From: Patescibacteria group bacterium
GTDB taxonomy: Bacteria; Patescibacteriota; WWE3; UBA101185; UBA10185
Direction of reading: 5' to 3'
NCBI GenBank assembly: GCA_032117075.1
Contig: JAUMAA010000003.1
Coordinates: 41,574 to 105,573, forward strand
DNA length: 64,000 nucleotides
The notes beneath the pieces were generated by a model that saw only the letters and a list, made by a program, of their open reading frames with translations, ran no database searches and had not been told where the DNA came from. The translations under genes and the position numbers were made by a program. This document shows, piece by piece, positions 1,029 through 51,511 of the stretch; the stretch's first letter is position 1, and each line of letters starts with the position of its first letter.

Positions 1029-1036
1029 TTAAGAAA

Positions 1037-1066
1037 ATGCGGGAGGTTTGAAAAACCTCCCGCATT
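1037..1066. terminator. GC-rich hairpin (atgcgggaggttt...aaacctcccgcat) between convergent genes; bidirectional terminator
   Basis: Perfect inverted repeat with A/T-rich flanks immediately after the ABC gene stop. Confidence 0.6.
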
Positions 1067-1082: not shown

Positions 1083-1790
1083 TTACTTCCAGTAAGTCTC
1101 CATCGAATCCCACAAATGTGTGTAATGCATTCTCCCAATCTCAGCAACAGCCTCTGCATATTCCCTAATCTCAGCTTGAGCATCAGGTTTGTTACGAAGA
1201 CTTACGAAGTGCATAACAGCTTGAGGACTGACGGTCCAGTAAAAACTCGTGTATGTAGAAAGCGGTAGAGTAAGACGAGCTTGCTCCATAGCTATACCGG
1301 CCGCTGCCATCTCCTTGTAGAGTGCGATGGAAGCCTCTTGAACTTCATCATACCTACGCTTGAAATTTTCGCTTTGAGGATGAACCTCGTCGGTCCGACC
1401 CTGTTTGCGATTCTTTGCCTGGAAATAGAAATACTGTGGTGTGTAAAAACTACTATATTCTACATACCTACCAGAAAGTTCATTCCAAGGCAAATCTTTA
1501 TAGGAGTAATCGGACCCAACCACATGTTTGAACCACTGCCTAGCTACAACCTCTGGACAATGAACATACAAAGTGATGTAACTGTGGCGAAAAGGCGAAC
1601 TGTGCAAGTTTTGTGCAAGCCAATCAAGAAATTTCTTGTCTTTAGAAAAGTCAAAAGTGGTTTGCCTTTTCCCAAAACTAGCTCTAGCGACGTTGACCGC
1701 CTTAAGACTTGGGTCCATACTCATCCAGTCATACAACTCAACCAAACCAACACCATCCCTCATGTAAATAGGGTCAGTTTTATTAGACAT
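1083..1790 (-). CDS. thyX: Flavin-dependent thymidylate synthase (ThyX)-like protein, divergent
   Basis: Aligns by eye to T. maritima ThyX blocks (GLVEL..RASF; H..PF.H...T.....P..VARQWF.H; ELSGRY; ARLTLPLSTYTSFYWTV...HFVSLR). The RHR motif is replaced by KHV and a 12-aa insert precedes ELSGRY. The likely start is the internal ATG (MSNKTD) preceded by the TAGGAGGA RBS; the ORF track extends to 1823. GC is about 45-48% versus about 30% in the surroundings. Confidence 0.65.
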   Translation of the reverse strand: MSNKTDPIYMRDGVGLVELYDWMSMDPSLKAVNVARASFGKRQTTFDFSKDKKFLDWLAQNLHSSPFRHSYITLYVHCPEVVARQWFKHVVGSDYSYKDLPWNELSGRYVEYSSFYTPQYFYFQAKNRKQGRTDEVHPQSENFKRRYDEVQEASIALYKEMAAAGIAMEQARLTLPLSTYTSFYWTVSPQAVMHFVSLRNKPDAQAEIREYAEAVAEIGRMHYTHLWDSMETYWK

Positions 1791-1857
1791 AAATCCTCCT
1801 ATATAAGCATCTCGTCCCATCAAGAAGTATACTTTAATTTTTGAAATCTACAAGAAA

Positions 1858-2733
1858 TTATTTCTTATTACCTGCATGTGAATTAGCTATCTCCTGACCA
1901 TTTCTATCTCCATAAGGATAGACAATTACAGTAGATCCAGCTCTAGCAATATCAGCTAAAATTTGCATCTCTCTTAACTTCATAGCTTCAGGATTTTTAG
2001 CTAAAATTTCCGATGCTTCAGAGAGTTTTTGAGCAACTAATACCTCAGCCGAGGCCTCAATTTGTTTTGCTTCGGCAGATCTTCTTGATCTAGCAATAGC
2101 TGCAAGTTCTTCTACCAAACTTTGAGGGGTGTCTATGTCAGTAATTCTCACTGCTCTTACATCTATTCCATAAACTTGTGCACCATCGTCAATCTGGACC
2201 TTAAGATTTGAAGCAATTTCTTCTCTCTGGTTTAGTAAGTCTTTCAAATCAAGATTACCAATAGTATTTTTCAAAGCCTCAGTCGATAACCAAATTACTG
2301 ATTGTCTATAATTTTGTACATCAAGTGTAGCTTTTCTTGGATCTTCAACTTTATATTCAACAGCTGCAGTTACTTTGGTAGGAACATTATCCTTTGTAAG
2401 AGTTGCAGTTGCTTCTACTTGATTGGTCTCGATTCTAGTATCAACAATCGAAGCAACGGAATAAATAAAAGGAGGAATGATAAAAAAACCAGGACCTTTC
2501 ACAGAATCAAATTTACCTAATTTTAAAATTACTATTCTTGTCCATTCTGGCAAGATATAAAACATAGAAGCAATAATCCAGGAAATTATAAAGTTTAGAA
2601 TTAATCCAAATCCAAAACCAGCTTCTCCAAAAATTGAGAGTACAAAACTAAGTGATAGAAGAAAAACAAATGAAATAAGAAAAATAATAAACCTAATAAA
2701 TAATTGTACTGATCCTGTGTTACCTGAATTCAT
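1858..2733 (-). CDS. SPFH/band-7 (stomatin/prohibitin-like) membrane protein
   Basis: N-terminal TM segments followed by an SPFH-like core (IVDTRIETNQVEA..., QSLVEELAAIARSRRSAEAKQIEASAE). AAAGGA RBS upstream. Confidence 0.8.
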   Translation of the reverse strand: MNSGNTGSVQLFIRFIIFLISFVFLLSLSFVLSIFGEAGFGFGLILNFIISWIIASMFYILPEWTRIVILKLGKFDSVKGPGFFIIPPFIYSVASIVDTRIETNQVEATATLTKDNVPTKVTAAVEYKVEDPRKATLDVQNYRQSVIWLSTEALKNTIGNLDLKDLLNQREEIASNLKVQIDDGAQVYGIDVRAVRITDIDTPQSLVEELAAIARSRRSAEAKQIEASAEVLVAQKLSEASEILAKNPEAMKLREMQILADIARAGSTVIVYPYGDRNGQEIANSHAGNKK

Positions 2734-2791: not shown

Positions 2792-2816
2792 AGGGGAGGT
2801 GCTTTGCACCTCCCCG
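2792..2816 (-). terminator. Rho-independent terminator for the downstream minus-strand gene
   Basis: Hairpin ggggaggtgc-tttg-cacctcccc; on the minus strand it is followed by a U-rich tract. Confidence 0.5.
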
Positions 2817-6598: not shown

Positions 6599-7210
6599 AT
6601 GAAGATCTTTACTGTGGCCGGGTCTCAGAATTTTATTGGCGCTGAAGTTTCCTTCATGCCTAACTATGATTCGGGAATCCAAGGATTAATAGTCGGTAAT
6701 GAGACTAACGGGTGTAAACTAGGGGTAGTTAAACTTTCCTTAGGAACAGAAAAGAAAACCTTACTTCACTGCGAAGTGATAGAGGGGAAAACACCGTATA
6801 TCAAACCAACTAATTCTTCCAAGGATGACTCATCAGCATTAGTGGTATTTCGGACTCCTGTTTTTAAAGGAGGTCGGAACTTCCACACTGGGGACAAAAC
6901 TCACGGAGCTTGCTTCAATTGTGAAGTAGAATTCGACAAAATGGTAGATCTCTGTAATTACTGTGGGCGAAAGCTAAAAGTATATTATAAAGATTTTCCT
7001 GGTCGTACCATTGCCCGTGGAACAGTTAGGAATTCGAAGAAGCCAGTTTTTGGCGATCAGTTAATCTGTATCGTTAAAAAAGGTATTATCTTCCGAACTT
7101 CCTACAATGGATATTTATATCCACATCCAGGTGCACATTTTCATGTCTTTGATGGCACGAGAATTGTTACTGCCACCTGGGATGAAAGGAAGAAGGGTTA
7201 CCTTCGGTGA
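6599..7210 (+). CDS. Hypothetical Cys-rich protein (CxxC...CxxC zinc-ribbon-like motif)
   Basis: AGAGAGGGG RBS. CFNCEVEFDKMVDLCNYCGR motif. GC-enriched (about 43%) relative to flanks. No family recognised. Confidence 0.5.
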   Translation: MKIFTVAGSQNFIGAEVSFMPNYDSGIQGLIVGNETNGCKLGVVKLSLGTEKKTLLHCEVIEGKTPYIKPTNSSKDDSSALVVFRTPVFKGGRNFHTGDKTHGACFNCEVEFDKMVDLCNYCGRKLKVYYKDFPGRTIARGTVRNSKKPVFGDQLICIVKKGIIFRTSYNGYLYPHPGAHFHVFDGTRIVTATWDERKKGYLR

Positions 7211-8068: not shown

Positions 8069-8153
8069 GGGCGAGTGGTGGAATTGGTATACACGCATGC
8101 CTTAGGAGCATGTTCCGCAAGGATTGAGAGTTCGAGTCTCTCCTCGCCCACCA
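8069..8153 (+). tRNA. tRNA-Leu (anticodon UAG), 85 nt with long variable arm, CCA encoded
   Basis: Folded by hand: acceptor GGGCGAG/CTCGCCC, anticodon stem catgc/gcatg with loop cuUAGga, long variable arm, T-arm gagag-TTCGAGT-ctctc, terminal ACCA. Confidence 0.9.
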
Positions 8154-8715: not shown

Positions 8716-11226
8716 ATGGATAGTAAGAATATAAAAATAGGTATAGATTTAGGTACAACCAACTCAGAAGTATGTATTAGCAATAAAGGAAATCTTGAAA
8801 TAATCAAGAATAGATTTGGAAATGAGTTTACCCCCTCAGTTCTTTGGATTGATAAATCTTTAAATAAGCAAATAGGACAAAAAGCTTATGAAAATTTCTT
8901 TAACCTATTAGAACAGCAAAATGTTAAATCAGAAATTAAAAGACTGATGGGAACTAATGAAAAAGTCAAATTTCCTAGACTTGATAAAGAAATGACTCCT
9001 GAAGAGATTTCTGCAGAAATTTTAATCTCTCTAAAAGAAGATATTAAAAGAAAATATAATGATTTTGATTTAAACTATGCTGTTATAACAGTACCGGCAT
9101 ATTTTAGTATTCTTCAATCAGAAGCTACTAAAAGGGCTGGTGAAATTGCTGGTTTTAAGCACGTAGTTTTATTACAGGAGCCGATTGCGGCTGCAGTAGC
9201 ATACGGATTTATGAATTCAACTAACGAAACTTGGGTTGTTTATGACTTAGGTGGAGGAACTTTTGATGTAGCTTTAGTTAACTCTAAAGACGGGCTGCTT
9301 TCTGTTATAGCTCATAATGGAGATAACTTTTTAGGTGGAAAAGATTTTGATGCAGAAATTGTTTATCAGAAAGTTATTCCAGAATTAAAAGAACAGTTCA
9401 ACTTAGAAAACCTTTCAATTGAGGATGAAGAATTTAAAAAAATATTTAATATTTTGAAATATAGAGCTGAACAAGCCAAAAAAGAACTAACTTCTTATGA
9501 AGAAACTTCTATCGATATTGATAATATCGGTGAAGACGAAGATGGGGTAGAAATTAATACCACTATTAAACTCACAAAAAAAGAATTTGAAAATATTATT
9601 AGAGATAAAGTTTCAAAAACTATAGAATTAACCAAAGAGACTATAAAATCCTCAGGAATTGATCAAAACATGATTAAAAAAGTAATTTTAGTAGGGGGAC
9701 CTACTCAAATTCCTTATATTAGAGAAAGAATTGCCAAAGAATTAAAAATTGAGGTTGACACCTCATTAGACCCACTTTCTGCGGTTGCTAAAGGAGCTTG
9801 TATCTATGCCATGAGTCAAAATGTCCCAGATACTGTTTTTGATAAAAATAAAAAACAATTAATGGAGGGGGAGATGAGCTTAAAATTGGAATATAGGTCA
9901 TTATCGTCAGAAATTGAAGAAAATATTTATGGTTTATTAGAAAATATAGAACAAGATAAAGAGTATTTTGTACAAATACAATCAGATTCAAATCATTTCA
10001 GCAGTCCAAAAACCAAAATAAATAATGGAAAGTTTTTTAAAGAAGTTAATTTAGAAAAAAATAAAACAAATATTTTTTATATTTATATCTTCGATGAAAA
10101 AGGTAATATTATCAAAACTTCCCCAGATTCATTTTCAATAACTCAAGGCTTATCAATTGCAGGAGCACCTATTTCACATTCAATTGGTATTGTAGTAGCC
10201 GATAGAAATGAAAGCTTAGGAGAAAAAGAATTTAGAGATACATATTTAGTAGTTTTTGAAAAAGGATCAATTCTTCCTTTAAAAGATACTAGGACATTTA
10301 AAACAGTTAAAAAACTAGTGAAGAATGAAAAGAATGCAACATTAGATATTGTAGTAGGAGAGGGGGAGTCTAAAATTCCAGATAGAAATACATTTATTTG
10401 TACACTAGGAATAAATGGCCAAGAACTTCCGTACGATCTTCCATCAGGAACTGAAGTTGAAATCACAATTGAAGTAAACGAATCAAGGGAGGTATCAGTA
10501 GCTGCTTACTTCCCATTAATAGATAAAAAGTATAACGGCAGATCTTCTTTACTTTCTAGAGAAGTGGATTTAGAAAAAATTGAAGAAGAATTAGAAACTG
10601 AAAGCATGCGAATTGATGACATCTCAAAAAATATATCAGAGAATGCTTCAGACGAACTTAGAGAAAAACTTAGAAGTGTATACCATACAGTAAGAGGAGC
10701 TACAAGCGGTGTAGAGGAGAAAGAAAAAGCCGATAAAGAACTTAGAGAATTAAAAGTTTCTATTGATGAGCTTCAAGAGAAATCTGAAATGCCAAAACTA
10801 ACCAATCTATTCAGTGAATTAGTAAAGGATTCTAAAGAGTTTATTGAAACATATGCTTCGGAAGAAAAAAAAGATATATTTACTAAAAAACTTACACATT
10901 TAGAGACAGACGGGAACGAGGCTATAAAAAATAAAGACAAAAGAAAAATAAATCAAGTAATTGAATTACTTGAAGATTTAAAAGGAGAAATCATCTATTC
11001 TAACGATGCAACATGGATTTATCAGTTTAGAAAACTCTCAACTGAAGTTCTAAATTATACAAACTATTCAGATGCTCAATATTATATTAAAAAGGGCAAC
11101 GATGCTTTAATAAAAAACGATGTCGAAGAAATTAAAAGATGTGTTAGAAATTTATTACAGCTTCTAGAGAGGCCAGAAACCTTTGAGGGAAGTGATAGAA
11201 ACACAATATCTGGTATAAGAAAGTAA
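8716..11226 (+). CDS. Atypical Hsp70-family protein (836 aa): complete actin-like NBD, about 100-aa insertion, SBD-beta-like region, long helical C-terminal extension
   Basis: IGIDLGTTNS, VITVPAYF, DLGGGTFDV, LVGGPTQIPYIRE, DPLSAVAKGA Hsp70 NBD motifs. A later segment (IVVGEGESKIPDRNTFICTLGINGQ..PSGTEVEITIEVNESREVSVAAY) resembles the DnaK SBD-beta motif (V.qGER......LG.F.L.GI.....G.P.IEVTFDID.NG). Confidence 0.85.
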   Translation: MDSKNIKIGIDLGTTNSEVCISNKGNLEIIKNRFGNEFTPSVLWIDKSLNKQIGQKAYENFFNLLEQQNVKSEIKRLMGTNEKVKFPRLDKEMTPEEISAEILISLKEDIKRKYNDFDLNYAVITVPAYFSILQSEATKRAGEIAGFKHVVLLQEPIAAAVAYGFMNSTNETWVVYDLGGGTFDVALVNSKDGLLSVIAHNGDNFLGGKDFDAEIVYQKVIPELKEQFNLENLSIEDEEFKKIFNILKYRAEQAKKELTSYEETSIDIDNIGEDEDGVEINTTIKLTKKEFENIIRDKVSKTIELTKETIKSSGIDQNMIKKVILVGGPTQIPYIRERIAKELKIEVDTSLDPLSAVAKGACIYAMSQNVPDTVFDKNKKQLMEGEMSLKLEYRSLSSEIEENIYGLLENIEQDKEYFVQIQSDSNHFSSPKTKINNGKFFKEVNLEKNKTNIFYIYIFDEKGNIIKTSPDSFSITQGLSIAGAPISHSIGIVVADRNESLGEKEFRDTYLVVFEKGSILPLKDTRTFKTVKKLVKNEKNATLDIVVGEGESKIPDRNTFICTLGINGQELPYDLPSGTEVEITIEVNESREVSVAAYFPLIDKKYNGRSSLLSREVDLEKIEEELETESMRIDDISKNISENASDELREKLRSVYHTVRGATSGVEEKEKADKELRELKVSIDELQEKSEMPKLTNLFSELVKDSKEFIETYASEEKKDIFTKKLTHLETDGNEAIKNKDKRKINQVIELLEDLKGEIIYSNDATWIYQFRKLSTEVLNYTNYSDAQYYIKKGNDALIKNDVEEIKRCVRNLLQLLERPETFEGSDRNTISGIRK

Positions 11227-11227
11227 A

Positions 11228-12655
11228 ATGTCATTTCATAATAATTCTTATTTTATACTAGACTTAAATTCTAATTCAACCGATAAACAAATTCTAAAAA
11301 AATCAAACAATATGCTTTTAAAGATTAAAGCAGAAATAGATATAAATGAAGAAATTCATCATGAATTAGATTTAAGAATTGAAAGAAACGAACATACTAT
11401 AAATGAAGCGACTAAAAAACTAACTTTTCCAAAGAAAAAATTAGAAGAATTTTTTTTCTGGTTTGAGCTAGAGAATGAAACAGACCATCATTTCTATAAA
11501 CTTCTTTCACAAAAAAACTTCATCCAAGCTATTAAATTTTTAAAAAAAGGAATTGAAGAAGATGAGTTAAGAAAATTTAAATACGAGAAAAACTTAGCAC
11601 TATGTTTTCTACTTATGCTAAATATTGATTATGATGAATCTATACTTTTAGAATCGATAAATTTATGGAAAAAATTAATTCATAATTCAAGTTTTTGGGC
11701 TGAGTTTTTTGATAAATATAGAACAAAAGAAGAGGGACTGGTTAATAAAGATTTAATGATTGAATTTAAATCTGAAATAGAAAATTTGATCTTTGAAGAA
11801 TATGAACATATTTCTAGCAGCTATCCAAAAGAAAGAATTATTGAAAAATTATTTACAATTTTAAAACCTCAAAATACTAGTATCTTTTCAAAATATTTAG
11901 AAAAATATATCTCTAAAGTTAACTCAATTTTAGAAAAATTTAATTCAATGGAATTCAAAGATAATAAAATAGGACAAATACAGAAAAATAAAATATCTGA
12001 AAATTTAGATAAATTAAAAGAATTATTTAATTATTTTGAATCTTTAGGGCTAGAAAATGAATCATCTATTAAAATACTGGGGGACGAGGTAGCCCAAAAT
12101 CTAGAGAGCCTATCTATTAAAATTAACAATCAGATTAAAGATTATGAAACATCTTATAAAATACTATCTATAGCATTGAAGTTTGTTGAAAGCAGCTCTA
12201 TTAAAAAAGGTATTGAAACAAATCTTGCAATAATAATTGAAAATAGAGAAGTTATAGCATTAAACACAATATATGAACTAATAAGAAGTGCAAAATTTGC
12301 ATCTGCATTAGTTTCAATTGATTATTTACTAAAGGATAGAAACACAAAAGATGAAACCAAAAAAACTTTAAGGGAACTAAAAGATAAAATTAAAGTGAAC
12401 AGAGATATGGATAAAACACTAATGAAAAACAAACCACTTTTATTTGATATTTTTGGGTTTGGGTTATTGTTGTATGGAGATATTAGATATCTTACATTTT
12501 TTTACATTCCAGTCTGCCCAATTTCAAGCTATAATACAATTAATAATTATGATGGTTCTACTTCATTTTTAGGAGAAAAGGAACTGGATTCCTTTTACTA
12601 TGGTTGGAAAGTAGTCTTCATAGCAGGAGTAATAATTTGGTTGTTAAGTAACTAA
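11228..12655 (+). CDS. Hypothetical helical protein with two C-terminal TM helices; N-terminus resembles a J-domain with degenerate HPD (speculative)
   Basis: YFILDLNSNSTDKQILKKSNNMLLKIKAEID aligns to the J-domain consensus YYEILGVSKTAS..EIKKAYRKLAMKYHPD, with HPD replaced by AEI. Hydrophobic C-terminus. Confidence 0.5.
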   Translation: MSFHNNSYFILDLNSNSTDKQILKKSNNMLLKIKAEIDINEEIHHELDLRIERNEHTINEATKKLTFPKKKLEEFFFWFELENETDHHFYKLLSQKNFIQAIKFLKKGIEEDELRKFKYEKNLALCFLLMLNIDYDESILLESINLWKKLIHNSSFWAEFFDKYRTKEEGLVNKDLMIEFKSEIENLIFEEYEHISSSYPKERIIEKLFTILKPQNTSIFSKYLEKYISKVNSILEKFNSMEFKDNKIGQIQKNKISENLDKLKELFNYFESLGLENESSIKILGDEVAQNLESLSIKINNQIKDYETSYKILSIALKFVESSSIKKGIETNLAIIIENREVIALNTIYELIRSAKFASALVSIDYLLKDRNTKDETKKTLRELKDKIKVNRDMDKTLMKNKPLLFDIFGFGLLLYGDIRYLTFFYIPVCPISSYNTINNYDGSTSFLGEKELDSFYYGWKVVFIAGVIIWLLSN

Positions 12656-12657
12656 AA

Positions 12658-13152
12658 GTGGGAAAATACGAATACGATACAAATTTAAATAATGATATAC
12701 CCTTTGAGACAAATCCTAATGTTACAAATAAAAAAGAACCTAATAGATTTGGTAGTGGAATAATTGTTTTAGTTATCATAGGAATTTTAGGTTACTTAAT
12801 CTCAACAAATAAAAACACTTCTATAAACAGTTCAAACAATGGTTCCAGCGATTCGAGTATTGTAGAATCAGGAAACGATACATATATTTGTTCTAAATAT
12901 AATATTTCTAAACTAAAAGATCTTACCCCAAGCTCAATCCTAAAAAATGAAATTGACGATTTAGAAAATAAACAAAATAAACTTGAAAGAGAATTGGATT
13001 CTATAGATCCTGATAGCAATCCTTATTTATATAATTCCAAAGTTGACGAATATAATGATATTGTTAGTAAATTAAAAGTAAAACTAAGCAACTACAATCA
13101 ACAAGTTGATAACTATAATGATTATTTAATTAAAAATTGTAATAAAAAATGA
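12658..13152 (+). CDS. Membrane-anchored coiled-coil protein
   Basis: Single TM (GIIVLVIIGILGYLIST), then a Ser/Asn-rich linker and a heptad-like helical region. Overlaps the next gene by 4 nt. Confidence 0.5.
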   Translation: MGKYEYDTNLNNDIPFETNPNVTNKKEPNRFGSGIIVLVIIGILGYLISTNKNTSINSSNNGSSDSSIVESGNDTYICSKYNISKLKDLTPSSILKNEIDDLENKQNKLERELDSIDPDSNPYLYNSKVDEYNDIVSKLKVKLSNYNQQVDNYNDYLIKNCNKK

Positions 13153-14216
13153 AACCCTTACTTTATAATAATTATAAAATTTCAGAAAACCTATTTGTAG
13201 TGAAAAGAGAAGAAAAAATTTTCTTTACTGAAATTTATAGTCTTTCAGATGGAAATTATCTTTTCTTATTTTTAAATATTAAACCAGATGAAGTGGTAAA
13301 TATAAATCAAGAATTAGAAATTGTAAAATTAAACATTGGAGGAGAAAACTATTTAGGTGTAATAGCTGACAGCTTTTCAGGAGAAAAAATTTATGAAATT
13401 TCTGAAAAACTCACTCAAATAAAAGGTTTGGATAGTGTTGCTGGAATGAAAGAATTGAAAAATCTTTTATATAATGAGGTCATAGAACCCTTAAGAAACC
13501 CAGAAAAGTTTAAAAAATTTAAAATATCAATACCTAACGGAATTTTACTTTTTGGACCTCCAGGCTGTGGTAAAACTTATATTGTAAAAAAATTGGCCGA
13601 AGAGTTAGGTTATTCGTTTATAGAACTTAACCCTTCTTCAGTTGCATCCCCCTATATTCACGGTGCAGTTTCAAATATCGGAAAAGTTTTTGAGATGGCA
13701 AGACTTCAAGCACCGTCTATTATCTTCATTGATGAAATAGAAGGATTACTTCCAAAAAGAGAAGATTTAGGATCCCATGCAGATACTAAAAAAGAGGAAA
13801 TAAATGAATTTTTACTCCAGCTAAATAATTCCAGTGAGAGCAATGTTTTAGTTGTAGGAGCTACAAATAGACCATCTATTATTGATTCGGCAATTTTAAG
13901 ATCAGGAAGAATGGACAAAAGAATATATGTAGGTCCACCGGATTATGAGTCAAGAAAAGAGTTGTTCAAACTTTCTCTATTAGGCAGACCTTTTGATAAT
14001 AAAATTAATTTGGACAAACTAGCTAAAGTTACTGAAAATTATGTAAGTTCTGATATATCTTTGATAGTTAATCAATCCGCAAGAAATGCACTTCAAAATA
14101 ACCAAGAGTATATAACAGAAGAAAATATTTTAAATATAATAAAAAATACTATTCCATCCATCTCAGAAGAGGATTTGAACTACTATCAGAACTATAGAAA
14201 TCTTGAAAGGTGGTAA
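13149..14216 (+). CDS. AAA+ ATPase, classical clade (Vps4/katanin/FtsH-like single AAA domain) with an N-terminal domain of about 120 aa
   Basis: Walker A GPPGCGKT, Walker B IIFIDEIE, SRH ATNRPSIIDSAILRSGRMDKRIYVGPPD. Confidence 0.85.
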   Translation: MKPLLYNNYKISENLFVVKREEKIFFTEIYSLSDGNYLFLFLNIKPDEVVNINQELEIVKLNIGGENYLGVIADSFSGEKIYEISEKLTQIKGLDSVAGMKELKNLLYNEVIEPLRNPEKFKKFKISIPNGILLFGPPGCGKTYIVKKLAEELGYSFIELNPSSVASPYIHGAVSNIGKVFEMARLQAPSIIFIDEIEGLLPKREDLGSHADTKKEEINEFLLQLNNSSESNVLVVGATNRPSIIDSAILRSGRMDKRIYVGPPDYESRKELFKLSLLGRPFDNKINLDKLAKVTENYVSSDISLIVNQSARNALQNNQEYITEENILNIIKNTIPSISEEDLNYYQNYRNLERW

Positions 14217-22009: not shown

Positions 22010-22086
22010 GGTCTGTTAGCTCAGTTGGTTAGAGCGCTTCAGTGACATTGAAGAGGTCATTGGTTCGAATCCAATACGGACCACCA
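22010..22086 (+). tRNA. tRNA-Val (anticodon GAC), 77 nt, CCA encoded
   Basis: Hand-folded: acceptor ggtctgt/acggacc (one G-U), D-arm gctc..gagc, anticodon stem cttca/tgaag with loop guGACau, T-arm attgg-TTCGAAT-ccaat, terminal ACCA. Confidence 0.85.
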
Positions 22087-25673: not shown

Positions 25674-26177
25674 TCAATCCTCACCAAGATCTGCAAGAAA
25701 GTTCCATGTCGACTCACCAATGCCTTTGCGAAAGTCTTCGTCAGTCTTTGCTTTCCAGGCATTCTTGGAATGAAATACTTTCTTTGACTGAGGATCGTAC
25801 TGATCTAAACTCAGCGAGAGCTTGAGATTTGCCTTTTTTCCTTCTACAAGCTTGTAATGAAGCTTTTCGAAAAGATTATTGGCCTCATCTAAGTAGGTAA
25901 GCATGTTAAGAACATCCCTTGGAATCCTAGCTCCCTTGGTTAAGAATCCTAGCTCCTCGACAATAAAAAACCGGAAGTTCTTCACCTTTCTTCTACGGGG
26001 ATACAAGGGGGACAGCTTGCCAAAACGAATCTTAAACAGCATCAAATACAAAACTGTTTGACCATCAAAAGTCTCTAATAAATCGTAAATTACCTCCAAG
26101 ATCTCAACAAAGCGGTCATTGCGGATAAGCTTTCCATTAGGAAATACTGAGTACTCCTTAACATTTGACCTACCCAT
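25674..26177 (-). CDS. Hypothetical protein (GC-enriched, inserted between rplT and pheS)
   Basis: ORF with GGAGG RBS. About 42% GC. Preceded by a conserved leader shared with the 18285-18413 ORF. No family recognised. Confidence 0.5.
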   Translation of the reverse strand: MGRSNVKEYSVFPNGKLIRNDRFVEILEVIYDLLETFDGQTVLYLMLFKIRFGKLSPLYPRRRKVKNFRFFIVEELGFLTKGARIPRDVLNMLTYLDEANNLFEKLHYKLVEGKKANLKLSLSLDQYDPQSKKVFHSKNAWKAKTDEDFRKGIGESTWNFLADLGED

Positions 26178-38569: not shown

Positions 38570-39206
38570 AATTAAGATTAATATCATTACATTATTTCCA
38601 AATCTATTTAACGAATTCAAAAGTGTACTCCCATTTAAAAGGGCACTTGAAAAAAATTTAATTGAATTAAATATTATCAATCTCAGAGATTTCGCAATTG
38701 ATGAAAGAGGAACAGTGGATGATAAGCCTTACGGAGGAGGGACAGGGATGATATTAAGAGTAGAACCAATTGTTAAGGCCTTAGAAACAATTGAAGAAAA
38801 AGAAGAAATAATCGTTTTAAATCCCAAAGGACAACTATTTAATCAAAACTTAGCTAAAGAATTTAAAGAAAAAACTTCACTAACTTTTATTTGCGGAAGG
38901 TATGAAGGAATTGATCAAAGAATAATAGACAACTATGCTACAAAGGAAGTCTCAATAGGAGAATATGTTTGCAGTGGTGGTGAAGCTCCAACTATTGTCA
39001 TGTTAGAGGCAATAATAAGATTATTACCTGAAGTTTTAGAAGAAGAAGTTACAAATGATGAATCATTTGAAGATAGTACATTTGAGTACCCTCAATACAC
39101 TAGACCTGAAAATTTTAATGGATTAAAAGTTCCAGATGTTTTAATTTCAGGCAACCACAAAGAAATTGAAAAGTGGAAAAAAGATAATTCGAGAAAATTA
39201 AATTAA
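38562..39206 (+). CDS. trmD: tRNA (guanine37-N1)-methyltransferase TrmD
   Basis: DDKPYGGGTGMIL and the SPOUT-fold core. rpsP-trmD synteny. Confidence 0.9.
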   Translation: MPKIKINIITLFPNLFNEFKSVLPFKRALEKNLIELNIINLRDFAIDERGTVDDKPYGGGTGMILRVEPIVKALETIEEKEEIIVLNPKGQLFNQNLAKEFKEKTSLTFICGRYEGIDQRIIDNYATKEVSIGEYVCSGGEAPTIVMLEAIIRLLPEVLEEEVTNDESFEDSTFEYPQYTRPENFNGLKVPDVLISGNHKEIEKWKKDNSRKLN

Positions 39207-39859
39207 TTTTGAGAAACAGTTTCTTCTAAATATCTATTGATAAAATCAGTAAATTTCATATCATTTAAAATATCATTTATAGGTGCATCTATTGAGGACT
39301 GAACTTTGGTCTTATTAAATACTGTTCTAGCAACAAACGAAACTCTGTAATATTTATTATCTCGATCATCAAATAACTCCAAATCTCTAATATTTATAAT
39401 CTTTCCTTTATTACTATTTAGAGATGTGAGGTAATTTAATGCAGATAGGGGACCAACTGTTCTACCATTAAACCTTACTTCAATAACTCCTTGGTTGCTT
39501 AAATTCTGATCCGCTATATTTTTGTTTTCATCTATCTTATTGAAATTAAATTTCTCGGCTTCTGCTCCTAAATTTGCAACTAATGGAGCAGGGGACTCAT
39601 CGTTAGGAACTAGCTCTACCATCTTTTCTTCGTATCTATTTAAATCATCAGCTTTATCTCTAGCATTTTGCAGGATATTTAATTTAGTTTGATAATTTGT
39701 AATTTGTAAATTTTTACCATCCCTGGTTGAATCTAATTCAGATTTAATATTTAAGTAAGGCATTATAAGTAACAAATTTATTATTGCAATTAAAGTAATA
39801 AAAATTACTGGAAAAATGAAGTATTTTAAATAAATAGTGAAGTCTTTTTTATCTGACAT
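39203..39859 (-). CDS. Type IV pilus assembly protein PilO-like (bitopic)
   Basis: N-terminal TM plus periplasmic domain; position after PilM/PilN. Confidence 0.5.
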   Translation of the reverse strand: MSDKKDFTIYLKYFIFPVIFITLIAIINLLLIMPYLNIKSELDSTRDGKNLQITNYQTKLNILQNARDKADDLNRYEEKMVELVPNDESPAPLVANLGAEAEKFNFNKIDENKNIADQNLSNQGVIEVRFNGRTVGPLSALNYLTSLNSNKGKIINIRDLELFDDRDNKYYRVSFVARTVFNKTKVQSSIDAPINDILNDMKFTDFINRYLEETVSQN

Positions 39860-40418
39860 TTAAGAGTCCTTTATTATATTTTACAGTAACAACATATTCT
39901 TTGGAAACCTCATTAACATCCTCAGGCACACCAGAGTTGCTAAATAAGTTTTCAATATTTGAGTCATTTACTTTAGAAGCTTTTAAGTTATCAACAAATC
40001 TTTTAAATGCAGTTGAGTCAGCGGTAACTCTTACCGAAACAAGGTCTTTATCGGTATCTACCGTAATAGTTTTAATAACCACACCTCCAGAAATATTTCG
40101 TTCATAAATATCTCTCATAACTTTTTCGTATAAAACCTTATCTCCTTCAAATTTTTGAGCAGCATCAAATCTAGCTTTAATATCTCTTAACTGAATTTCT
40201 TCCTTAGAATATTCCGCAATGTCTTTTCTCAAGGAAGTTAGTTTTGAATCTAGACTATCTTTTTCATTTTTCAATGGCTGTAAAAGAGTATTAAAATAGT
40301 AGCCCAAACTCCCGACCGCAAGCATTGTTAATATCAAAAAAATATTCGCAATCTTGGTATAAAGCTGAATTTTTTGCTCTAATTTCTCTTCTGATGTTAG
40401 TAAATTTATTTCACTCAT
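39849..40418 (-). CDS. Type IV pilus assembly protein PilN-like (bitopic, coiled coil)
   Basis: Short N-terminus, TM, coiled coil; directly downstream of pilM. Confidence 0.55.
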   Translation of the reverse strand: MSEINLLTSEEKLEQKIQLYTKIANIFLILTMLAVGSLGYYFNTLLQPLKNEKDSLDSKLTSLRKDIAEYSKEEIQLRDIKARFDAAQKFEGDKVLYEKVMRDIYERNISGGVVIKTITVDTDKDLVSVRVTADSTAFKRFVDNLKASKVNDSNIENLFSNSGVPEDVNEVSKEYVVTVKYNKGLLNVR

Positions 40419-41440
40419 AAAATCTCAATTCCTGATAGACCTATTGGTGCAGATAGAGAGGAGGATAATTCTTTTAAACTTCCTTCATACTTACTTAAAT
40501 CAGAATTGACTTTAACTTTATTAAAAGGATTAAATACCTCTACAGGTATATTTAAATTTTTCTGCAAGTAATCCTCAAGACCAGGTAATTTAGCCATTCC
40601 CCCTGTTAGATAAATTTTAGAAATATTCATGTTTTTATTCTTATCCATAAAATAAATTACTGACCTCTTAATATCAAGTATATATGAATCTATTAAAGGT
40701 TTTAAGAAATTAAAAATCTTTCCCTCCGCGACTTGAGGATTTAGACCGTAAGCCTTTTTATAATTCTCAGCTTGGATATTTGTTAGATTTAAATTCTGAA
40801 TTAAAGCTTTATTTAAGGAATTAGATCCTATTGAGATAGTTTTAATAAATCTTGGAACTCTTTTATAAGAAACATGTAAAGTAGAGAACTGGTACCCAAA
40901 ATCAAGAATCATAACAGCATCTTTACCATCTTTAATATCTATAATTCTAGATAAGGAAATTGTTTTTGCTTCAAATACTTTAGGGGTTAGGCCTGCTTTT
41001 TTAATTAAATCAACATATCTTTCGATTCTTTCTTTTTTAGCTGCCACAATTAAAATTTCAACATTAGTAGAATCTTTTTGATCAATAATTTTGTAATCAT
41101 AAGTTAAATTAGCAATATTCTCGGGAAAAATCTCAGCTGCTTGGAGATTAATATAGTTTCGGATTTCTTTATCACTCATCTTAGGAATGACTTTTACATT
41201 CAAATAAACATCTGTCTCGGGTAACGATAAAGAAACTTCATTAGTAGGAAAATCAAGTTCTTTAAAAAATTCCTTTAACTTGAAAGAATATAAATTTATA
41301 GCTTCTTCGTTATTGAAATCCAATTTTAATTTTTCTGATTCATATATTGCAAAATTTAAAATAGTAGGGGACTTTGAAACCAAACCAACCTCAACACATT
41401 TGATGCTATGATTTCCTAAATCTATTCCAATATGAGTCAT
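40415..41440 (-). CDS. pilM: Type IV pilus assembly ATPase-like protein PilM (actin fold)
   Basis: N-terminal IGIDLGNHSIKCVEV and the actin-like ATPase fold length. Confidence 0.8.
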   Translation of the reverse strand: MTHIGIDLGNHSIKCVEVGLVSKSPTILNFAIYESEKLKLDFNNEEAINLYSFKLKEFFKELDFPTNEVSLSLPETDVYLNVKVIPKMSDKEIRNYINLQAAEIFPENIANLTYDYKIIDQKDSTNVEILIVAAKKERIERYVDLIKKAGLTPKVFEAKTISLSRIIDIKDGKDAVMILDFGYQFSTLHVSYKRVPRFIKTISIGSNSLNKALIQNLNLTNIQAENYKKAYGLNPQVAEGKIFNFLKPLIDSYILDIKRSVIYFMDKNKNMNISKIYLTGGMAKLPGLEDYLQKNLNIPVEVFNPFNKVKVNSDLSKYEGSLKELSSSLSAPIGLSGIEIL

Positions 41441-41464
41441 ATAATTTATTATACTTAATTTTAG

Positions 41465-41947
41465 TTATTGTTGATATGTTTTATTCAAAGTAATTCTTTT
41501 TTCAAATTTAACTTCTGTTTTTAATCTTGAATTATTAAAATCTTTAGAAATACCAAAGGAAATATAAACAACTTGTGGGTTAGTTCCAGTTACTGTAAGA
41601 ACAAAAGGTGCTGATTTACCTATCTCTGAATCAGTTAATTGAATATTATCTAGTACCAACATGCTACTTGATTCTATAAAGGAAAGAGTAAAAGTTTTAG
41701 TTGGGTAAACAATCGATAACTTTTTACTTACAGAATTGTATGAAACAGAGTCAGAATCTTGAATTAATTTAGTAAGTTTAACATTTAGAAATGAGTACTC
41801 CTCTTCAAGAGAAATTTTATTTTGAATTTTAGTTGAGGTGGATGTTAGGCTAATAATCATATCTGAAGAAATTACGGATACGACTGTAATTAGTAAAACT
41901 ACTACCAAGAGTTCGACTAGAGTAAAACCCTTATTATTTAATCTCAC
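41465..41947 (-). CDS. Prepilin-type minor pilin/pseudopilin
   Basis: NKGFTLVELLVVVLLI class III signal peptide (G-F-T-L-x-E). Confidence 0.7.
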   Translation of the reverse strand: MRLNNKGFTLVELLVVVLLITVVSVISSDMIISLTSTSTKIQNKISLEEEYSFLNVKLTKLIQDSDSVSYNSVSKKLSIVYPTKTFTLSFIESSSMLVLDNIQLTDSEIGKSAPFVLTVTGTNPQVVYISFGISKDFNNSRLKTEVKFEKRITLNKTYQQ

Positions 41948-42414
41948 TGTCTAGTCCTCCAATTTGTAAAAATAGTATCAGTAGAAGATGAGAAGAGAAT
42001 TTTATTGGTTTCATAATAACTAACTACTTGAATATTTATTTCCACTATAGGTAAAGATGAGAGTGGTTCTGTGGTTACCTTAAAGCAAGTAAGTCCTTTT
42101 TGAACTGGAGAAGGGCAACTTGTAAAATTATTAGTCGATGGATTAGGAAAATAACAATAAGTATTAGTACATCTACTATTTAATTCTGTCGAAAAAGAAT
42201 CAAACCCAGTATCTTTGATAACTCTTAATTTTTCTAAAACATTTGATGAGTTTTTAGTTGCTTCTTGTCTCTCTGTAACATTAAGTGAATTTTGAATATT
42301 GAAAGTGGTGAGAGAAAGGAGTGCAACCACTAATACAACTGCAAATGCTATAGCTAAGACAGCTTCAACTAATCCTATTCCTTTATTATTTACTTTGAGC
42401 ATAGATTCTTCCAA
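41944..42414 (-). CDS. Prepilin-type minor pilin (PilV-like)
   Basis: NNKGIGLVEAVLAIAF prepilin N-terminus. Confidence 0.6.
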   Translation of the reverse strand: MEESMLKVNNKGIGLVEAVLAIAFAVVLVVALLSLTTFNIQNSLNVTERQEATKNSSNVLEKLRVIKDTGFDSFSTELNSRCTNTYCYFPNPSTNNFTSCPSPVQKGLTCFKVTTEPLSSLPIVEINIQVVSYYETNKILFSSSTDTIFTNWRTRQ

Positions 42415-42820
42415 ATTTATTAATAATTACATTAAATGATGGGAAATTGATTGTTACAGAAATCAAATTATTATTTTGATCAACTAAGTTACCATATCTA
42501 TCTATAAAAAAATTTGAGGTACTTGATCCTGAAATAAAGTCATAGTTTGTTTCTTTACATTCATTTAACTCAACAGAGCAAGTAGTTACTTTCAAACCGG
42601 CAAAGTTCATAGAATATTTGTTATCCGTTGTTAAGGCAAGGTTTTGAGTTGTTCTAAATGTAGAAATAAAATTTTTAACTTCTTCGTTTTCAGCTTGTTT
42701 TCTCTGATAATTTAAAATAGAAGGAATCGAAAGACCTGCAATTACAATTATCAATACAATCACAACAAGAAGTTCGATAAATGTAAAACCAGAATTTGAA
42801 TTAAGCTTCTTTATCTGCAT
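42386..42820 (-). CDS. Prepilin-type minor pilin
   Basis: NSGFTFIELLVVIVLI. Confidence 0.7.
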   Translation of the reverse strand: MQIKKLNSNSGFTFIELLVVIVLIIVIAGLSIPSILNYQRKQAENEEVKNFISTFRTTQNLALTTDNKYSMNFAGLKVTTCSVELNECKETNYDFISGSSTSNFFIDRYGNLVDQNNNLISVTINFPSFNVIINKFGRIYAQSK

Positions 42821-43335
42821 TAAGGACCTGTAACAGGAGCCAGACCTCCACTAACCTTAAATACATTACTTTTAACTAAATCGCAACTAGAAAACAGCCC
42901 TGAGGTAGGATCCATACTTTCTTTAGGTATCTCTAGGATAAATTCTTGACCTCTGGGGATTCCAAAATTACTACTTTCTTTAATTGAATAAACCTCATAA
43001 TAACTTTGAGTTATATTAGTTACATAAATGTAATCGCAGGAAGTATTTTCAGATGGATCGTATAAGGAAACTTTAACATTAAAAGAACTTAGCTCCGAGA
43101 TAGCTGAAGGGTATCTTTTGTATTCAGAGTAGTAGAGTTCTAAAGCAGAAGCAATCTGTGAAAGAGAAGATACTCTTAGAGCGTCCCTTTGTTCCCTTTG
43201 TTTTTCGGCTGGATTAAAGATGACAATAGAAGTAGCTGCAAGTATCACCATTATTCCAACTACAATCATTAACTCTAGCAAAGTAAAACCTTTATTACTT
43301 ACATTAAATTTTTTGGTATATGAGCAGTTTTTCAT
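42820..43335 (-). CDS. Prepilin-type pilin
   Basis: NKGFTLLELMIVVGIMVILA. Confidence 0.7.
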   Translation of the reverse strand: MKNCSYTKKFNVSNKGFTLLELMIVVGIMVILAATSIVIFNPAEKQREQRDALRVSSLSQIASALELYYSEYKRYPSAISELSSFNVKVSLYDPSENTSCDYIYVTNITQSYYEVYSIKESSNFGIPRGQEFILEIPKESMDPTSGLFSSCDLVKSNVFKVSGGLAPVTGP

Positions 43336-43348
43336 TTTTTTCCTTTAA

Positions 43349-44218
43349 TTAATTATCTAAAAATAGAGCATAATCATAAATAGATGATGGTGTATCCAGA
43401 TATTTAAATGCCTCAACTCTTCTGGAGGTTTTATCAACTCCGTCAGTAAATACTCCTTTTGCAGTAATTTTGTACCCTTGAATTACATTTCTTACATTTG
43501 TACTGGTTGAAAAAACTTTAAGAGTACTTACTTCGTTGGAAAGAGGTTGAAATCTTATCATGTAAGAATTTGTAACTCTAAAGTAACCAGAGGCACAATT
43601 TCCTGTAATAGGAGAGATATTTTTATAAGAACTACCATCAAATAAATAGTTTTCAAGTAAATATTCGTTAGTTTTAACTCTGTTTACATTTGTAGTAGTT
43701 AGTGAATCTTCTACAGGTTCAAAAATTTGAATACTTGGGTTTGATGTAACAATACCAAGTCTATATGATGTATTTGGAGGGGACACTTCCAATTTAATAC
43801 ATGCAGTTTGAGGTAAAAGTACTCCGGCTCCTGAAAACTCGGTGGTTAAAAAAGTGACCGTCTCAGAAGGTTTAATTTTTTCGTAAACCATACCGGTACT
43901 TGAATTTGCATTTAATTTATCAACAGTAATGATTGCGGAAGTTCCGTTGTTTACAAAATCAATAGCTTCACTAAATTCCGTATTATCTACTAATAGATCT
44001 AAATCGGAGTCACTCTTTAATAAAAATTTTTCAAGGCCGCCTTCGGCGGCCGCTGTTACTTTTTGTAATGAATCCAAATTTCCAGTTCTTTTAAGGGATT
44101 CTGTACTTCTTGAGGTAATTCCTAAACCTACACCCAGTGTTACTGCCATTGCTACTACAACAATTAAGAGAACCTGACCTTTATTATCTAAATTGTTTGA
44201 CATATCTTTATTAATCAT
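43349..44218 (-). CDS. Pilus-associated protein with hydrophobic N-terminus (PilX-like?)
   Basis: NKGQVLLIVVVAMAVTLGVGLG hydrophobic helix lacking the Glu5; Thr/Ser/Val-rich. Confidence 0.4.
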   Translation of the reverse strand: MINKDMSNNLDNKGQVLLIVVVAMAVTLGVGLGITSRSTESLKRTGNLDSLQKVTAAAEGGLEKFLLKSDSDLDLLVDNTEFSEAIDFVNNGTSAIITVDKLNANSSTGMVYEKIKPSETVTFLTTEFSGAGVLLPQTACIKLEVSPPNTSYRLGIVTSNPSIQIFEPVEDSLTTTNVNRVKTNEYLLENYLFDGSSYKNISPITGNCASGYFRVTNSYMIRFQPLSNEVSTLKVFSTSTNVRNVIQGYKITAKGVFTDGVDKTSRRVEAFKYLDTPSSIYDYALFLDN

Positions 44219-44229
44219 ACTAGTAACTT

Positions 44230-47200
44230 TTAATCATTAAAATACTTAAATATTGTTTTGCTTCTTGTAACATTAAACATCTTATAAGACCTCAGGTCTT
44301 GTTGTAAATAAATTAATACATCTGGGTTTTGAGAAATATTTATAAAGGATCTATCTTCATTTTGAGTACTTAAATTTCCAATTAATTTAAAGTCTCCATA
44401 GATACCACCTTTTAAGTGATAAACTGCTCTATTGCCACAAATAAGAGAATAGTTCTCTAAATCAGAACAATCCACATGGAAAACAATTCTCTCTTTGATA
44501 TTTGATTTATCAGTTGAAACAAAGTAAACATTTTCTAAGTTGTTATAAATATTTAAATCTGTAAGATCAAAGTATAGTTGTTTATTTTTTGCAACATAAA
44601 TTATTGTTGGAGTTGCAGATACTGGAACACTGTTAAAAGCATCAATTTTATTGAAATTATTTACAGAGCCCGATGGTTTCGTGTCTGTTAGTAGTAAAGA
44701 AGTAACTTGTGTTTCAGGTAAGGCATAGTCAACTAAATTTTCAGTATAACTAAAATTAAATGCCTTAGTCAGCTTATCAAAATAAGGAATATTAAAATAA
44801 GAAGGACCCATCAAAGTATTACTTAATCTAAAATTTTTACCGCCCTGAGCAGAACCTGAAACATAAACACCTTCATACCTTTTATCCACATCAGAAGTAG
44901 TATAAAACTTTACATCACTTGATCTTTTTATCATTGTATTTCCGTTAACTCTAAAATTTAAGTAAGAGGTAGGAGGCTGAACATTTCCGGAGGTTAAATA
45001 AATATCTAAAGATTGAGGAACTAAATTATAACTATTAACTACATTTGATTTATAAAACAAATCCAAACATCCATTATTGATTGTTCCGGTAAAGTAGTTA
45101 TTAGAAATAGAGCTGGTTGATGTAGTTGTTGAATTTGTAAATCCAATTCTACTTACTTTAGTATCAGCAGTATTGGTAAAACAAATTTTATATTTCACAT
45201 TATCAATCAAAGTATTACCTGATTTACTTAGGTCATGATCCCAGAAAAAATTAGAAAAGGTATCTTTATGCAGTGTGAATGAAGATTCACCGTCGGGTGC
45301 GGTAAGATTTCTTTGTTGAGGAGTAACATTTTTGAAAGTTTTGGTTACAACCATTTTGGCATCGGCAAAAGGATCCTGATCTTGATTATCTAAATAAGTA
45401 AATATATTTATGAAACTTTGAAGTGTGTAATACCTATTAGGATCTATACCTAAAGATGGGTAATTATAGACAGTTCCGTTGTAATTAAAACTTATTTTAT
45501 AAAAATATTTCTCAAAATTAGGTGACTTAACATTTAAAAAATTAAAAGATTTTCTATCAGACAATAAATTTGCAGCTAAAGTTGTCGGAAGTGGGGCAGA
45601 GGTAATGCCGTCATAAAGAGTAAGATACATTTTAGTTCCAGCGGGAACATTTACTATACCTGAGGGGCAGCTTAAATTAATAGCCGAATTAAATGTGTAA
45701 TTTAGGTTATAAGTAGAAGTTGTTGTATCAATAGCAGAGGGTACTATTCCTTTATTTATAGAATTTGGATCTGTATTTATAAGAGTTAAACCACCCGCAA
45801 CTAGATTGTAATTAGGCACACACTCTGGGGTAGTTGGAGGGACTTTTGAAGTTAGAACATAGTTTCTAGAAACAAAAATTGCATAATCATTATCTGTATT
45901 TGCATCATCGTTATTGTAATATCTAAATGTTAATGGAGCATTATTTCCGGGCCCAAGAGAAGGGAATTTGTAACCTCCGTTTGTTTCATTTAATTCAAAG
46001 AGTCTGTGTGTTCCAGTGGGTGAATTAAATTTTTCAGCCCTAAACATTCTAGACTTTGCACTTAAGTTATTCTTAGAATCTACAAAATTAGGAGCAATTA
46101 AAATATCGACATCATTTCCAGAATTTACACTAAAGCTAACATTCTTCAAGTAACTCAGAGAAACATTTCGTAGTGCAATAAATTTTGTTTGAGTTGGCTG
46201 ATTCCCCATGTACCCACTAAATTCAAACCTCTTAAATACTAAATTGCTGTTGGCATACTGAAGGGTGAAGTAGTATTTATCTGAGACATAATCAGCCAAG
46301 ACACCTGATCCTACACCTAATTTTGGTACAACCTCGAAGGTTAGAAGGGAGGGTACCGGTTCAAATTTATAGTTTTCTATTCTATACTTGTAGTACCAGT
46401 CACTAGAACCTGGGAAATAGATTCTTACTAGATCAACTCTATTTTTAAGGTTATAGGCTGCTAACGGAGAATCGTAACCCCCAAATACCCAATTTAAGGA
46501 ACTCTGATTCTGAAGTGTAGGATTGAACCCGTAATAGACTCTATTATAAAAGTCTTTGTAGTCCCCTTTGTTATCTTTAAATATCCCATAATTTGGAAAT
46601 TTTATAGCTGATGCGTTACTCCACTCATGTCTATTATCTCCACTTGAGCTAACCCTTAAAACCATATTAATACCGTATTCAAGTTCTGAAAAAGGAGCGG
46701 CACAGTTATTTTTCGACTTCCCAATACAATATGACTTAGCATCCCTAGTGGCACTTCCTCCAGAACTTGGACCCTGGTTTACAAATATATTAGGGTTTAA
46801 AGATAATCTAGGTCCAGAAAAAGAAGAAGGAGCTACATTGAAGGACATCCTGGTAATGTTTGGATAGTTGTAGTACTGACTGTAACCTTCTTTATTCAAA
46901 GTAACACATTGATACCTCCTATCCCAGCATGATTCAGTAGCTGAAAGACGACAATTACTTTCTAGAGGTACACCAAGAGTTTGAGCCCTTCTTAAGCATT
47001 CAACATTTCCCCTATATGTAGTTCCCCAACCACCTTGCGGATCCTTTCTTTCATAACATCTATTCTCCAACAGATCTTCAAGACCTCCGCCTCCAAAAAT
47101 AACGGTATTATTTTTTTTGGCTATAGAAGAAGGAAACCAGCTAGACTTACATCCAGCTGTATAGCCAACATTTCCAAATGTTTTAAAAGACCTAGTGATA

Positions 47201-47781: not shown

Positions 47782-47829
47782 ACTATTATTAAAACATATT
47801 TTATGAAAATAATTTTATAAAAACTAATT

Positions 47830-48588: not shown

Positions 48589-48600
48589 CTTAAAACCTAA

Positions 48601-49167: not shown

Positions 49168-49169
49168 AT

Positions 49170-50381: not shown

Positions 50382-50383
50382 AA

Positions 50384-51445: not shown

Positions 51446-51511
51446 ATTATAATTTACCTACTAAATTAATTGCCATATTTTAAATCTATATTATTTTCAA
51501 ATTAAATACAA

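Follow-up and report, generated by a model that had tools for sequence, protein, structure and literature searches.

Flavin-dependent thymidylate synthase (ThyX or FDTS) converts deoxyuridine monophosphate (dUMP), CH2H4folate and NAD(P)H to deoxythymidine monophosphate (dTMP). It is a homotetramer whose active sites lie where three subunits meet, and genomes with thyX usually lack thyA. The enzyme is an antibacterial drug target, and ThyX is a textbook example of a family recognised by a single short signature, RHR(X)7S. This is the motif of Myllykallio (2002) as used in an evolutionary survey that dropped sequences departing from it by more than two dissimilar residues (PMC2826268). RHR serves mainly to hold the phosphates and the ribityl part of flavin adenine dinucleotide (FAD), with dUMP contacted by the first Arg only, and the proteins of Mycobacterium tuberculosis and Helicobacter pylori are stated to be canonical in this motif (PMC6514825). 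The founding member, Thy1/ThyX of Dictyostelium discoideum, complements an E. coli ΔthyA mutant (PMC10733785). PolB is a ThyX paralog with extra loops near the entrance of the active site, whose specificity lies in Loop 1 (residues 117-131) and Loop 2 (192-201) (PMC5003785). Here we describe a thyX-like gene that departs from the signature. It lies at 1083-1790 on the minus strand of a 64,000-nt stretch of Patescibacteria DNA (contig JAUMAA010000003.1, positions 41,574 to 105,573; hereafter the window), is an intact open reading frame (ORF) for 235 aa and belongs by family profiles to the flavin-dependent thymidylate synthases and by its residue pattern to a K-H-x variant subfamily of these. 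The protein is with a probability of about 0.78 a working thymidylate synthase of a subfamily with a rewired flavin-phosphate clamp, and the gene most likely is the ordinary thymidylate synthase gene of its organism.

The protein is a member of the ThyX family by profile and fold. It matches the Pfam family Thy1 (PF02511) with an E value of 1.2e-38 (133.3 bits, cutoff 24.8) and the NCBIfam thyX equivalog TIGR02170 with 125.8 bits (cutoff 87.9). The closest solved relatives found with HMMER are ThyX of T. thermophilus (6j61, E=1e-32) and of T. maritima (1kq4, E=8e-31); identity to the latter is about 36% in the family alignment, and across the searches E values against the two enzymes run to 1e-31 to 1e-33. 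An AlphaFold2 monomer model built on 28 homologs reached a predicted local distance difference test score (pLDDT) of 86.1 and a predicted template modelling score (pTM) of 0.80. When this monomer model was compared with the PDB using Foldseek, all top matches were T. maritima ThyX (probability 1.00, TM score approximately 0.55-0.60). Profiles, solved relatives and modelled fold therefore agree with the homology to ThyX that had been proposed in a preliminary description of this stretch.

The peptide quoted in that description for the signature region, KHVVGSDYSYKDLPWNELSGRY, is an exact match to the translation. In the alignments FKHVVGSDYSYKDLPWNELSGRY is placed opposite FRHR(I/T)AS--------(Y/V)NE(L/I)SGRY of the T. 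maritima and T. thermophilus enzymes. HMMER alignments to 6j61 and 1kq4 as well as the family alignments locate K88-H89-V90 (codons at 1521-1529, minus strand) at the canonical RHR (T. maritima R78-H79-R80). Two of the three residues thus differ, in line with the replacement of the motif noticed before, and the 235-aa protein has no RHR elsewhere, nor does the alignment place a genuine one at another position. The motif had also been called dUMP-binding, which is correct for the contact made by its first Arg; in the main it is a clamp for the FAD phosphates and the ribityl part (PMC6514825). An insert, D94-P101 (DYSYKDLP, 1488-1511, minus strand), separates the motif helix from the substrate-recognition peptide and falls into a gap in the T. 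maritima and T. thermophilus alignments. The insert had been noticed before; its length is 8 aa, not 12. In the clade of the window protein it is conserved as (D/E)Y(S/T/A)(F/Y)(K/V)D(T/L)x, and residues 91-101 were modelled by AlphaFold2 as a low-confidence or disordered loop (pLDDT<50). The recognition peptide that follows, N103-E-L-S106-G-R108-Y109 (1464-1484, minus strand; T. maritima N85-Y91), is fully conserved, with S106, R108 and Y109 in invariant columns. A further departure is R68 in the sequence PFRH (codon at 1587-1589, minus strand), which stands at the position of the FAD-contacting Glu of T. maritima (E58, PFEH). This change is coupled to the loss of the third Arg of RHR.

The residues around the nucleotide are kept. 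The dUMP positions R84/Q85 (T. maritima R74/Q75), E104/S106/R108/Y109 (E86/S88/R90/Y91), R172 (R147) and R199 (R174) are all present, as are H63 (H53) and E169 (E144) at the folate site. These dUMP and catalytic positions are invariant or at least 90% conserved in the subfamily alignments, and six of them (T. maritima H53, S88, R90, Y91, E144 and R174) have, according to PDB entry titles, been mutated by crystallographers in the T. maritima enzyme. We take the canonical FAD-contact positions to be T. maritima S30, T55, E58, R78, H79, R80, N163 and R165, a list drawn partly from PMC6514825 and partly assumed after Mathews (2003). Kept among these are S38 (S30) and H89 (H79). T55 is changed to S65, and five further changes (E58 to R68, R78 to K88, R80 to V90, N163 to S188 and R165 to Q190) cluster at the ADP part of the flavin site. 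At R165 the T. thermophilus ThyX and the functional Dictyostelium ThyX depart from T. maritima as well, both with His. By residue comparison, the nucleotide pocket and the catalytic residues are unchanged and only the flavin-phosphate contacts are rewired. In such a site a relocated arginine, R68, would provide the guanidinium for which canonical enzymes use R80, and K88 would still contact both the flavin and the dUMP phosphate, as R78 does. The cofactor would still be FAD, and the protein would make dTMP for a WWE3-related Patescibacteria cell.

The same combination of residues is found throughout the nearest homologs. The motif could be scored in 116 of the 120 best database homologs: Arg occupies the E58 position in all 116 and the third motif position in none, the first motif position is Lys in 113, and His or Tyr stands at the second. 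When 1.84 billion representatives were searched exhaustively with HMMER, 6162 ThyX-like clusters were obtained, and the closest 149 (50%-identity clusters) were typed. About 100 of these are of the K-H-x/Arg type; all 15 with Glu at the E58 position have RH(R/K), and a few intermediates combine Arg at this position with KHR or KYR. The E58 and R80 positions co-vary strongly, although not independently of phylogeny, and the coupled replacement of Glu by Arg and of Arg by another residue suggests compensation. The subfamily can be described by (K/R)-(H/Y)-x with a non-basic third residue, by Arg in place of E58 and by a loop of variable length before the recognition peptide. This loop has one extra residue in some KHQVG forms, 8 in the clade of the window protein, 11-16 in Vampirovibrionales and Ignavibacteria, and 28 in Planctomycetota (K-Y-Q-V-G).

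Cellular carriers of the subfamily are a WWE3 metagenome-assembled genome (60% identity to the window protein), Vampirovibrionales, Ignavibacteria (including Ignavibacterium album), Marinimicrobia, Kapaibacteria and Sedimentisphaerales/Planctomycetota; isolated phages that carry it are Geobacillus phage vB_GthS_NIIg9.7, Synechococcus phage S-CBS4 and Streptomyces phage Jada. All solved ThyX structures in our comparison, from which the C. glutamicum entries were left out, read directly as E58 plus RHR: T. maritima, T. thermophilus, PBCV-1 (2cfa/4fzb) and 4p5a, which we take to be PolB (SVIThyX2, the Streptomyces UMP/dUMP C5-methylase). In the 64 bacterial genome loci no gene neighbour is conserved across clades, only lineage-specific ones were seen. 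We found nothing relevant in the literature on ThyX motif variants or on ThyX in the Candidate Phyla Radiation (CPR), Melainabacteria or Ignavibacteria. The filter of the evolutionary survey mentioned above would probably have excluded the K-H-x branch. Automated pipelines already call the branch thymidylate synthase, and the departure from the motif seems not yet to have been discussed. Three family members (P0155, P0256 and P0210, 554-818 aa) contain inteins (Intein_splicing with HNH or LAGLIDADG) in the loop region that holds the 8-aa insert in the window protein, and N-terminal fusions to HNH occur in others (P0124). In the Ignavibacteria loci L025, L028, L053, L056, L063, L071 and L081 an ORF of about 296 aa lies approximately 1.2 kb upstream of the variant thyX; by eye only, it resembles type 2 GTP cyclohydrolase I, a folate-pathway enzyme.

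Viral relatives are numerous: 269 IMG/VR contigs encode proteins with the same FKDTxWNE insert, with up to 53% identity to the window protein. We examined 81 viral loci, 80 kept from the IMG/VR scan (L095-L174) and the phage-like locus L093. The KH motif together with the loop length of the window protein was found in 77 of them. A dCTP deaminase gene (PF22769) lies on the same strand, at a median distance of 938 bp upstream of thyX, in 63 of the 81 loci; counted by thyX clusters at 70% identity, the linkage holds for 9 of 16, with truncated contigs accounting for several of the exceptions. An HNH endonuclease is often encoded downstream of the variant ThyX (39 viral loci). The module of dCTP deaminase, small ORFs and variant ThyX recurs across diverged viral groups with 33-57% GC. 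Since dCTP deaminase is a supplier of dUTP/dUMP, its pairing with ThyX looks like a thymidylate module. Neighbour-joining groups the Patescibacteria genes and the viral genes that share their insert in a single clade (96% bootstrap), inside which the two kinds are intermingled with weak support.

Several observations weigh against a working thymidylate synthase. In place of the signature RHR(X)7S the protein has K88-H89-V90-(X)15-S106; it differs there at two of the three motif positions, and the stretch before the Ser is 15 residues long rather than 7. With E58R, R78K, R80V, N163S and R165Q, several FAD contacts differ, so FAD binding would not be guaranteed. No characterised or solved member with the variant motif was found in the literature or among those solved ThyX whose motif was checked (the C. 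glutamicum entries were not among them), and the literature search returned no study of a subfamily member, be it biochemical, genetic or structural. The Dictyostelium enzyme was considered as proof that the variant is active and was rejected, as its own sequence is canonical RHR (Planctomycetota also hold K-Y-Q variants). Finally, no thyA, folA, second thyX, tmk, dut, dcd or glyA is present within the 64-kb window, which is uninformative for the whole genome. Departures of this kind could mark a neofunctionalised paralog that is not the thymidylate synthase of the cell and has an altered substrate or product; it might methylate UMP or dCMP in the manner of PolB, or modify bases in phage style. 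Altered substrate or function had also been the earlier proposal for this gene. The lost signature, the insert adjoining the recognition peptide, the many phage-borne members and the lack of an assayed member in the literature could be read in this way, and PolB, which methylates UMP as well as dUMP, is a precedent (PMC5003785). However, the specificity loops of PolB lie downstream of the recognition peptide, away from the insert, and the changed residues touch the flavin phosphates, not the nucleotide; the positions contacting uracil, phosphate and sugar are all conserved. The gene is present in a single copy in the window, its bacterial neighbours are housekeeping genes with none conserved across clades (no dedicated screen for secondary-metabolite clusters was made), and the phage context is dCTP deaminase. 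We regard a change of substrate as quite unlikely, and this part of the preliminary description is not supported.

Two Arg residues at the flavin phosphates are missing (R80V, R165Q) and a Glu in the FAD site has become Arg, which might also be expected of a catalytically dead or non-flavin protein with the ThyX fold, kept for nucleotide binding, for regulation or for another role. Such a protein would hardly keep every catalytic and dUMP residue strictly conserved across phyla and phages, R165 is likewise His in T. thermophilus and in the functional Dictyostelium enzyme, and phages keep the gene beside dCTP deaminase; we give this explanation almost no credence. We favour a working flavin-dependent thymidylate synthase because the dUMP and catalytic residues are kept, dCTP deaminase adjoins the phage homologs and the PolB loops lie elsewhere. 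A bolder combined proposal has two separate parts: the K-H-x/PFRH branch would hold the flavin unlike all solved ThyX, with a phosphate-binding arginine moved from the RHR helix to the E58 strand, and might even use another form of the cofactor or another reductant, and the thyX genes of WWE3-related bacteria would be under an unrecognised selection at synonymous sites that has avoided A-ending codons through complete turnover. Taken as a whole we consider this proposal rather unlikely.

The composition of thyX bears on its history. The gene has 43.4% GC (39.5-50% in 200-nt windows) compared with 30.9% for the whole window. It had been described before as an outlier in a context of about 30% GC, which it is, although with a GC content below the 45-48% given there. 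The GC content at third codon positions (GC3) is approximately 0.42-0.43, compared with 0.218 +/- 0.055 in window ORFs of at least 120 aa. Codons ending in A are avoided (A3 0.16 vs 0.39): TTA is used in 0 of 15 cases, TCA in 0 of 20, GGA in 0 of 8 and AGA in 2 of 14. At twofold NNR sites the fraction of G is 0.59 vs 0.21, whereas fourfold sites, with a GC of about 0.23-0.26 vs 0.18-0.19, are nearly ameliorated and shifted from A to T.

The order MsrA (PMSR), two small ORFs, Band_7, ThyX and ABC/PMT is found in metagenomic relatives with ThyX proteins 79, 77, 62 and 52% identical. Band_7 and ThyX are adjacent in loci L082, L091 and L092, a 137-aa ORF lies between them in L086, and in L084 the upstream gene is cut. 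Identity of Band_7 in relatives is 87-91%, and the flanking proteins have diverged to a degree comparable with ThyX. In the closest of these orthologs (62-79% identity), fourfold and twofold synonymous sites are saturated: they agree no more often than expected by chance, in thyX as well as in its neighbours. GC3 of thyX is nevertheless raised in every relative (0.34-0.47 vs 0.19-0.27); the orthologs with raised GC3 are located at L082:10001-10705, L084:891-1598, L086:10001-10729, L091:2195-2887, L092:6322-7026 and L002:1417-2094. GyrB places the window near WWE3/Patescibacteria, with 67-70% identity to named relatives and up to 95% to metagenomic ones, and the 67-70% are comparable to the 60% of thyX against the WWE3 genome.

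High GC and deviant codons could be the fading footprint of a recent transfer of a foreign gene into a 30% GC genome. GC3 and codon use far from those of the window fit such an import, as do the nearest non-Patescibacteria relatives, which lie on phage contigs with 43-47% GC where thyX is compositionally native, and the mixed clade of viruses and Patescibacteria. A recent import is rejected because synonymous sites are saturated and synteny is kept at ThyX identities down to 52%, with flanks similarly diverged, yet GC3 stays raised. A passive footprint should furthermore decay evenly, whereas here the fourfold sites are nearly ameliorated and the NNR sites are still rich in G. We consider a recent acquisition very improbable, and the horizontal acquisition suggested earlier can be upheld at most for the distant past. 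By synteny and saturation, thyX is an old resident at one chromosomal locus. An old phage link of the Patescibacteria thyX is likely, and an ancient exchange is plausible.

The codon bias of thyX looks maintained, and no explanation was found for it. A structured mRNA was rejected as the cause, since the fold of the whole gene has z=-1.19 and there is no Rfam match. Translational selection was also rejected: the ribosomal genes L35 and S16 share the raised NNC, not the raised NNG (G/(G+A) 0.15-0.17 vs 0.59). On the plus strand a 187-aa ORF (1281-1844) is codon-aligned with thyX. An antisense gene was rejected here, since syntenic orthologs have 4-10 stops in that frame; the ORF is, by this comparison, a by-product of codon use, kept open by the near-absence of TTA, CTA and TCA. 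Two ORFs of the window without Pfam match have a similarly raised GC3: 25674-26177 on the minus strand (0.45, G/(G+A) 0.68) and 6599-7210 on the plus strand (0.37). Orthologs of the latter occupy the corresponding position in L082 and L086 and evolve fast (44-45% identity); the highest GC3 outside thyX in these two loci is approximately 0.35.

Translation of thyX would start at the ATG at 1790, which has a GGAGG Shine-Dalgarno sequence 4 nt upstream (1795-1799, minus strand), read directly from the sequence; the strong ribosome binding site reported before is thus indeed present. The public gene call P0001 is 245 aa long and starts 10 codons earlier, at the ATG at 1820. It is probably 10 codons too long: ATG 1790 is the likely start because all orthologs begin at the methionine of MS(N/H)KT, and GGAGG also favours it. 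Downstream of thyX an intrinsic terminator is located at 1036-1066 (minus strand), in which a T tract follows a stem of 14 bp (RNA fold -28.3 kcal/mol, z=-5.86). It sits between convergent genes and may also serve the ABC gene on the plus strand. Directly upstream of thyX lies a Band_7/SPFH gene (1858-2733, minus strand), a pairing kept in relatives. No significant hairpin or terminator was found in the 67-nt spacer between Band_7 and thyX (z=-0.65), and the next terminator, made up of a 10-bp stem in which 8 pairs are GC and a T tract after it (2793-2815, minus strand), lies upstream of Band_7 and is the likely 5′ boundary of the unit. We therefore read both genes as one transcription unit; they are probably co-transcribed up to the terminator at 1036-1066. 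Of the strong hairpin terminators by which thyX was said to be bracketed, the downstream one is confirmed and the upstream one is found only beyond Band_7.

Further features of the window include a type IV pilus-like cluster on the minus strand (39203-53305) with PilM, several short ORFs, T2SSF and two T2SSE ATPases. In this cluster the ORF at 48601-49167 has an N-terminal methylation motif, and a 1183-aa protein (44230-47781) has no Pfam match. On the plus strand (8716-14216) an unusual operon encodes an 836-aa protein, the first 365 residues of which are an Hsp70/actin-like ATPase, two ORFs without Pfam match (475 and 164 aa) and an AAA+ ATPase. As for RNA genes, only tRNA-Leu (TAG, 8069-8153) and tRNA-Val (GAC, 22010-22086) were detected, both on the plus strand.

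For this window the practical result is modest, and the rewired flavin site and the long-maintained codon bias will be mainly of interest to specialists. Beyond it, a wide branch without RHR(X)7S exists in CPR, Melainabacteria, Ignavibacteria, Marinimicrobia, Planctomycetota and many phages. Should its members be active enzymes, which the evidence suggests, the motif taken to define the family should be relaxed, and the way in which ThyX binds its flavin would be more plastic than the solved structures show.

Compared with known systems, the window protein shares the Pfam and NCBIfam family and the fold with ThyX/FDTS of T. maritima (TM0449; 1KQ4, 1O26) and ThyX of T. thermophilus (6J61), and like them it has the recognition peptide NE(L/I)SGRY and the equivalents of H53, R74/Q75, E144, R147 and R174. 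It differs from both in KHV instead of RHR, in PFRH instead of PFE(H/M) and in the 8-aa insert before the recognition peptide. N163 and R165 of T. maritima are S188 and Q190 in the window protein, and D and H stand there in T. thermophilus. The Dictyostelium enzyme has the canonical FE(M) and RHR and no insert, and shares with the window protein the replacement of R165. The structure 4p5a, presumably PolB, has E58 and RHR, whereas the window protein has R68 and KHV. A PolB-like methylase was rejected, since the insert lies upstream of the recognition peptide, off the loop positions of PolB (Tyr124/Tyr126 type). PolB is encoded in an antibiotic gene cluster, whereas the neighbours in the window are Band_7, an ABC ATPase, MsrA (PMSR) and several ORFs without family match. 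The phage genes S-CBS4 thy1, vB_GthS_NIIg9.7 gp38 and Jada gp8 share PFR(H/G), K-(H/Y)-x-(V/I)-(G/A) and WNE-S-RY with the window protein and have an insert of similar length, and viral relatives fall into the same clade with 96% bootstrap. The phage thyX genes are located in viral genomes of 33-57% GC, usually beside dCTP deaminase and HNH, whereas the gene described here is chromosomal and lies beside Band_7.

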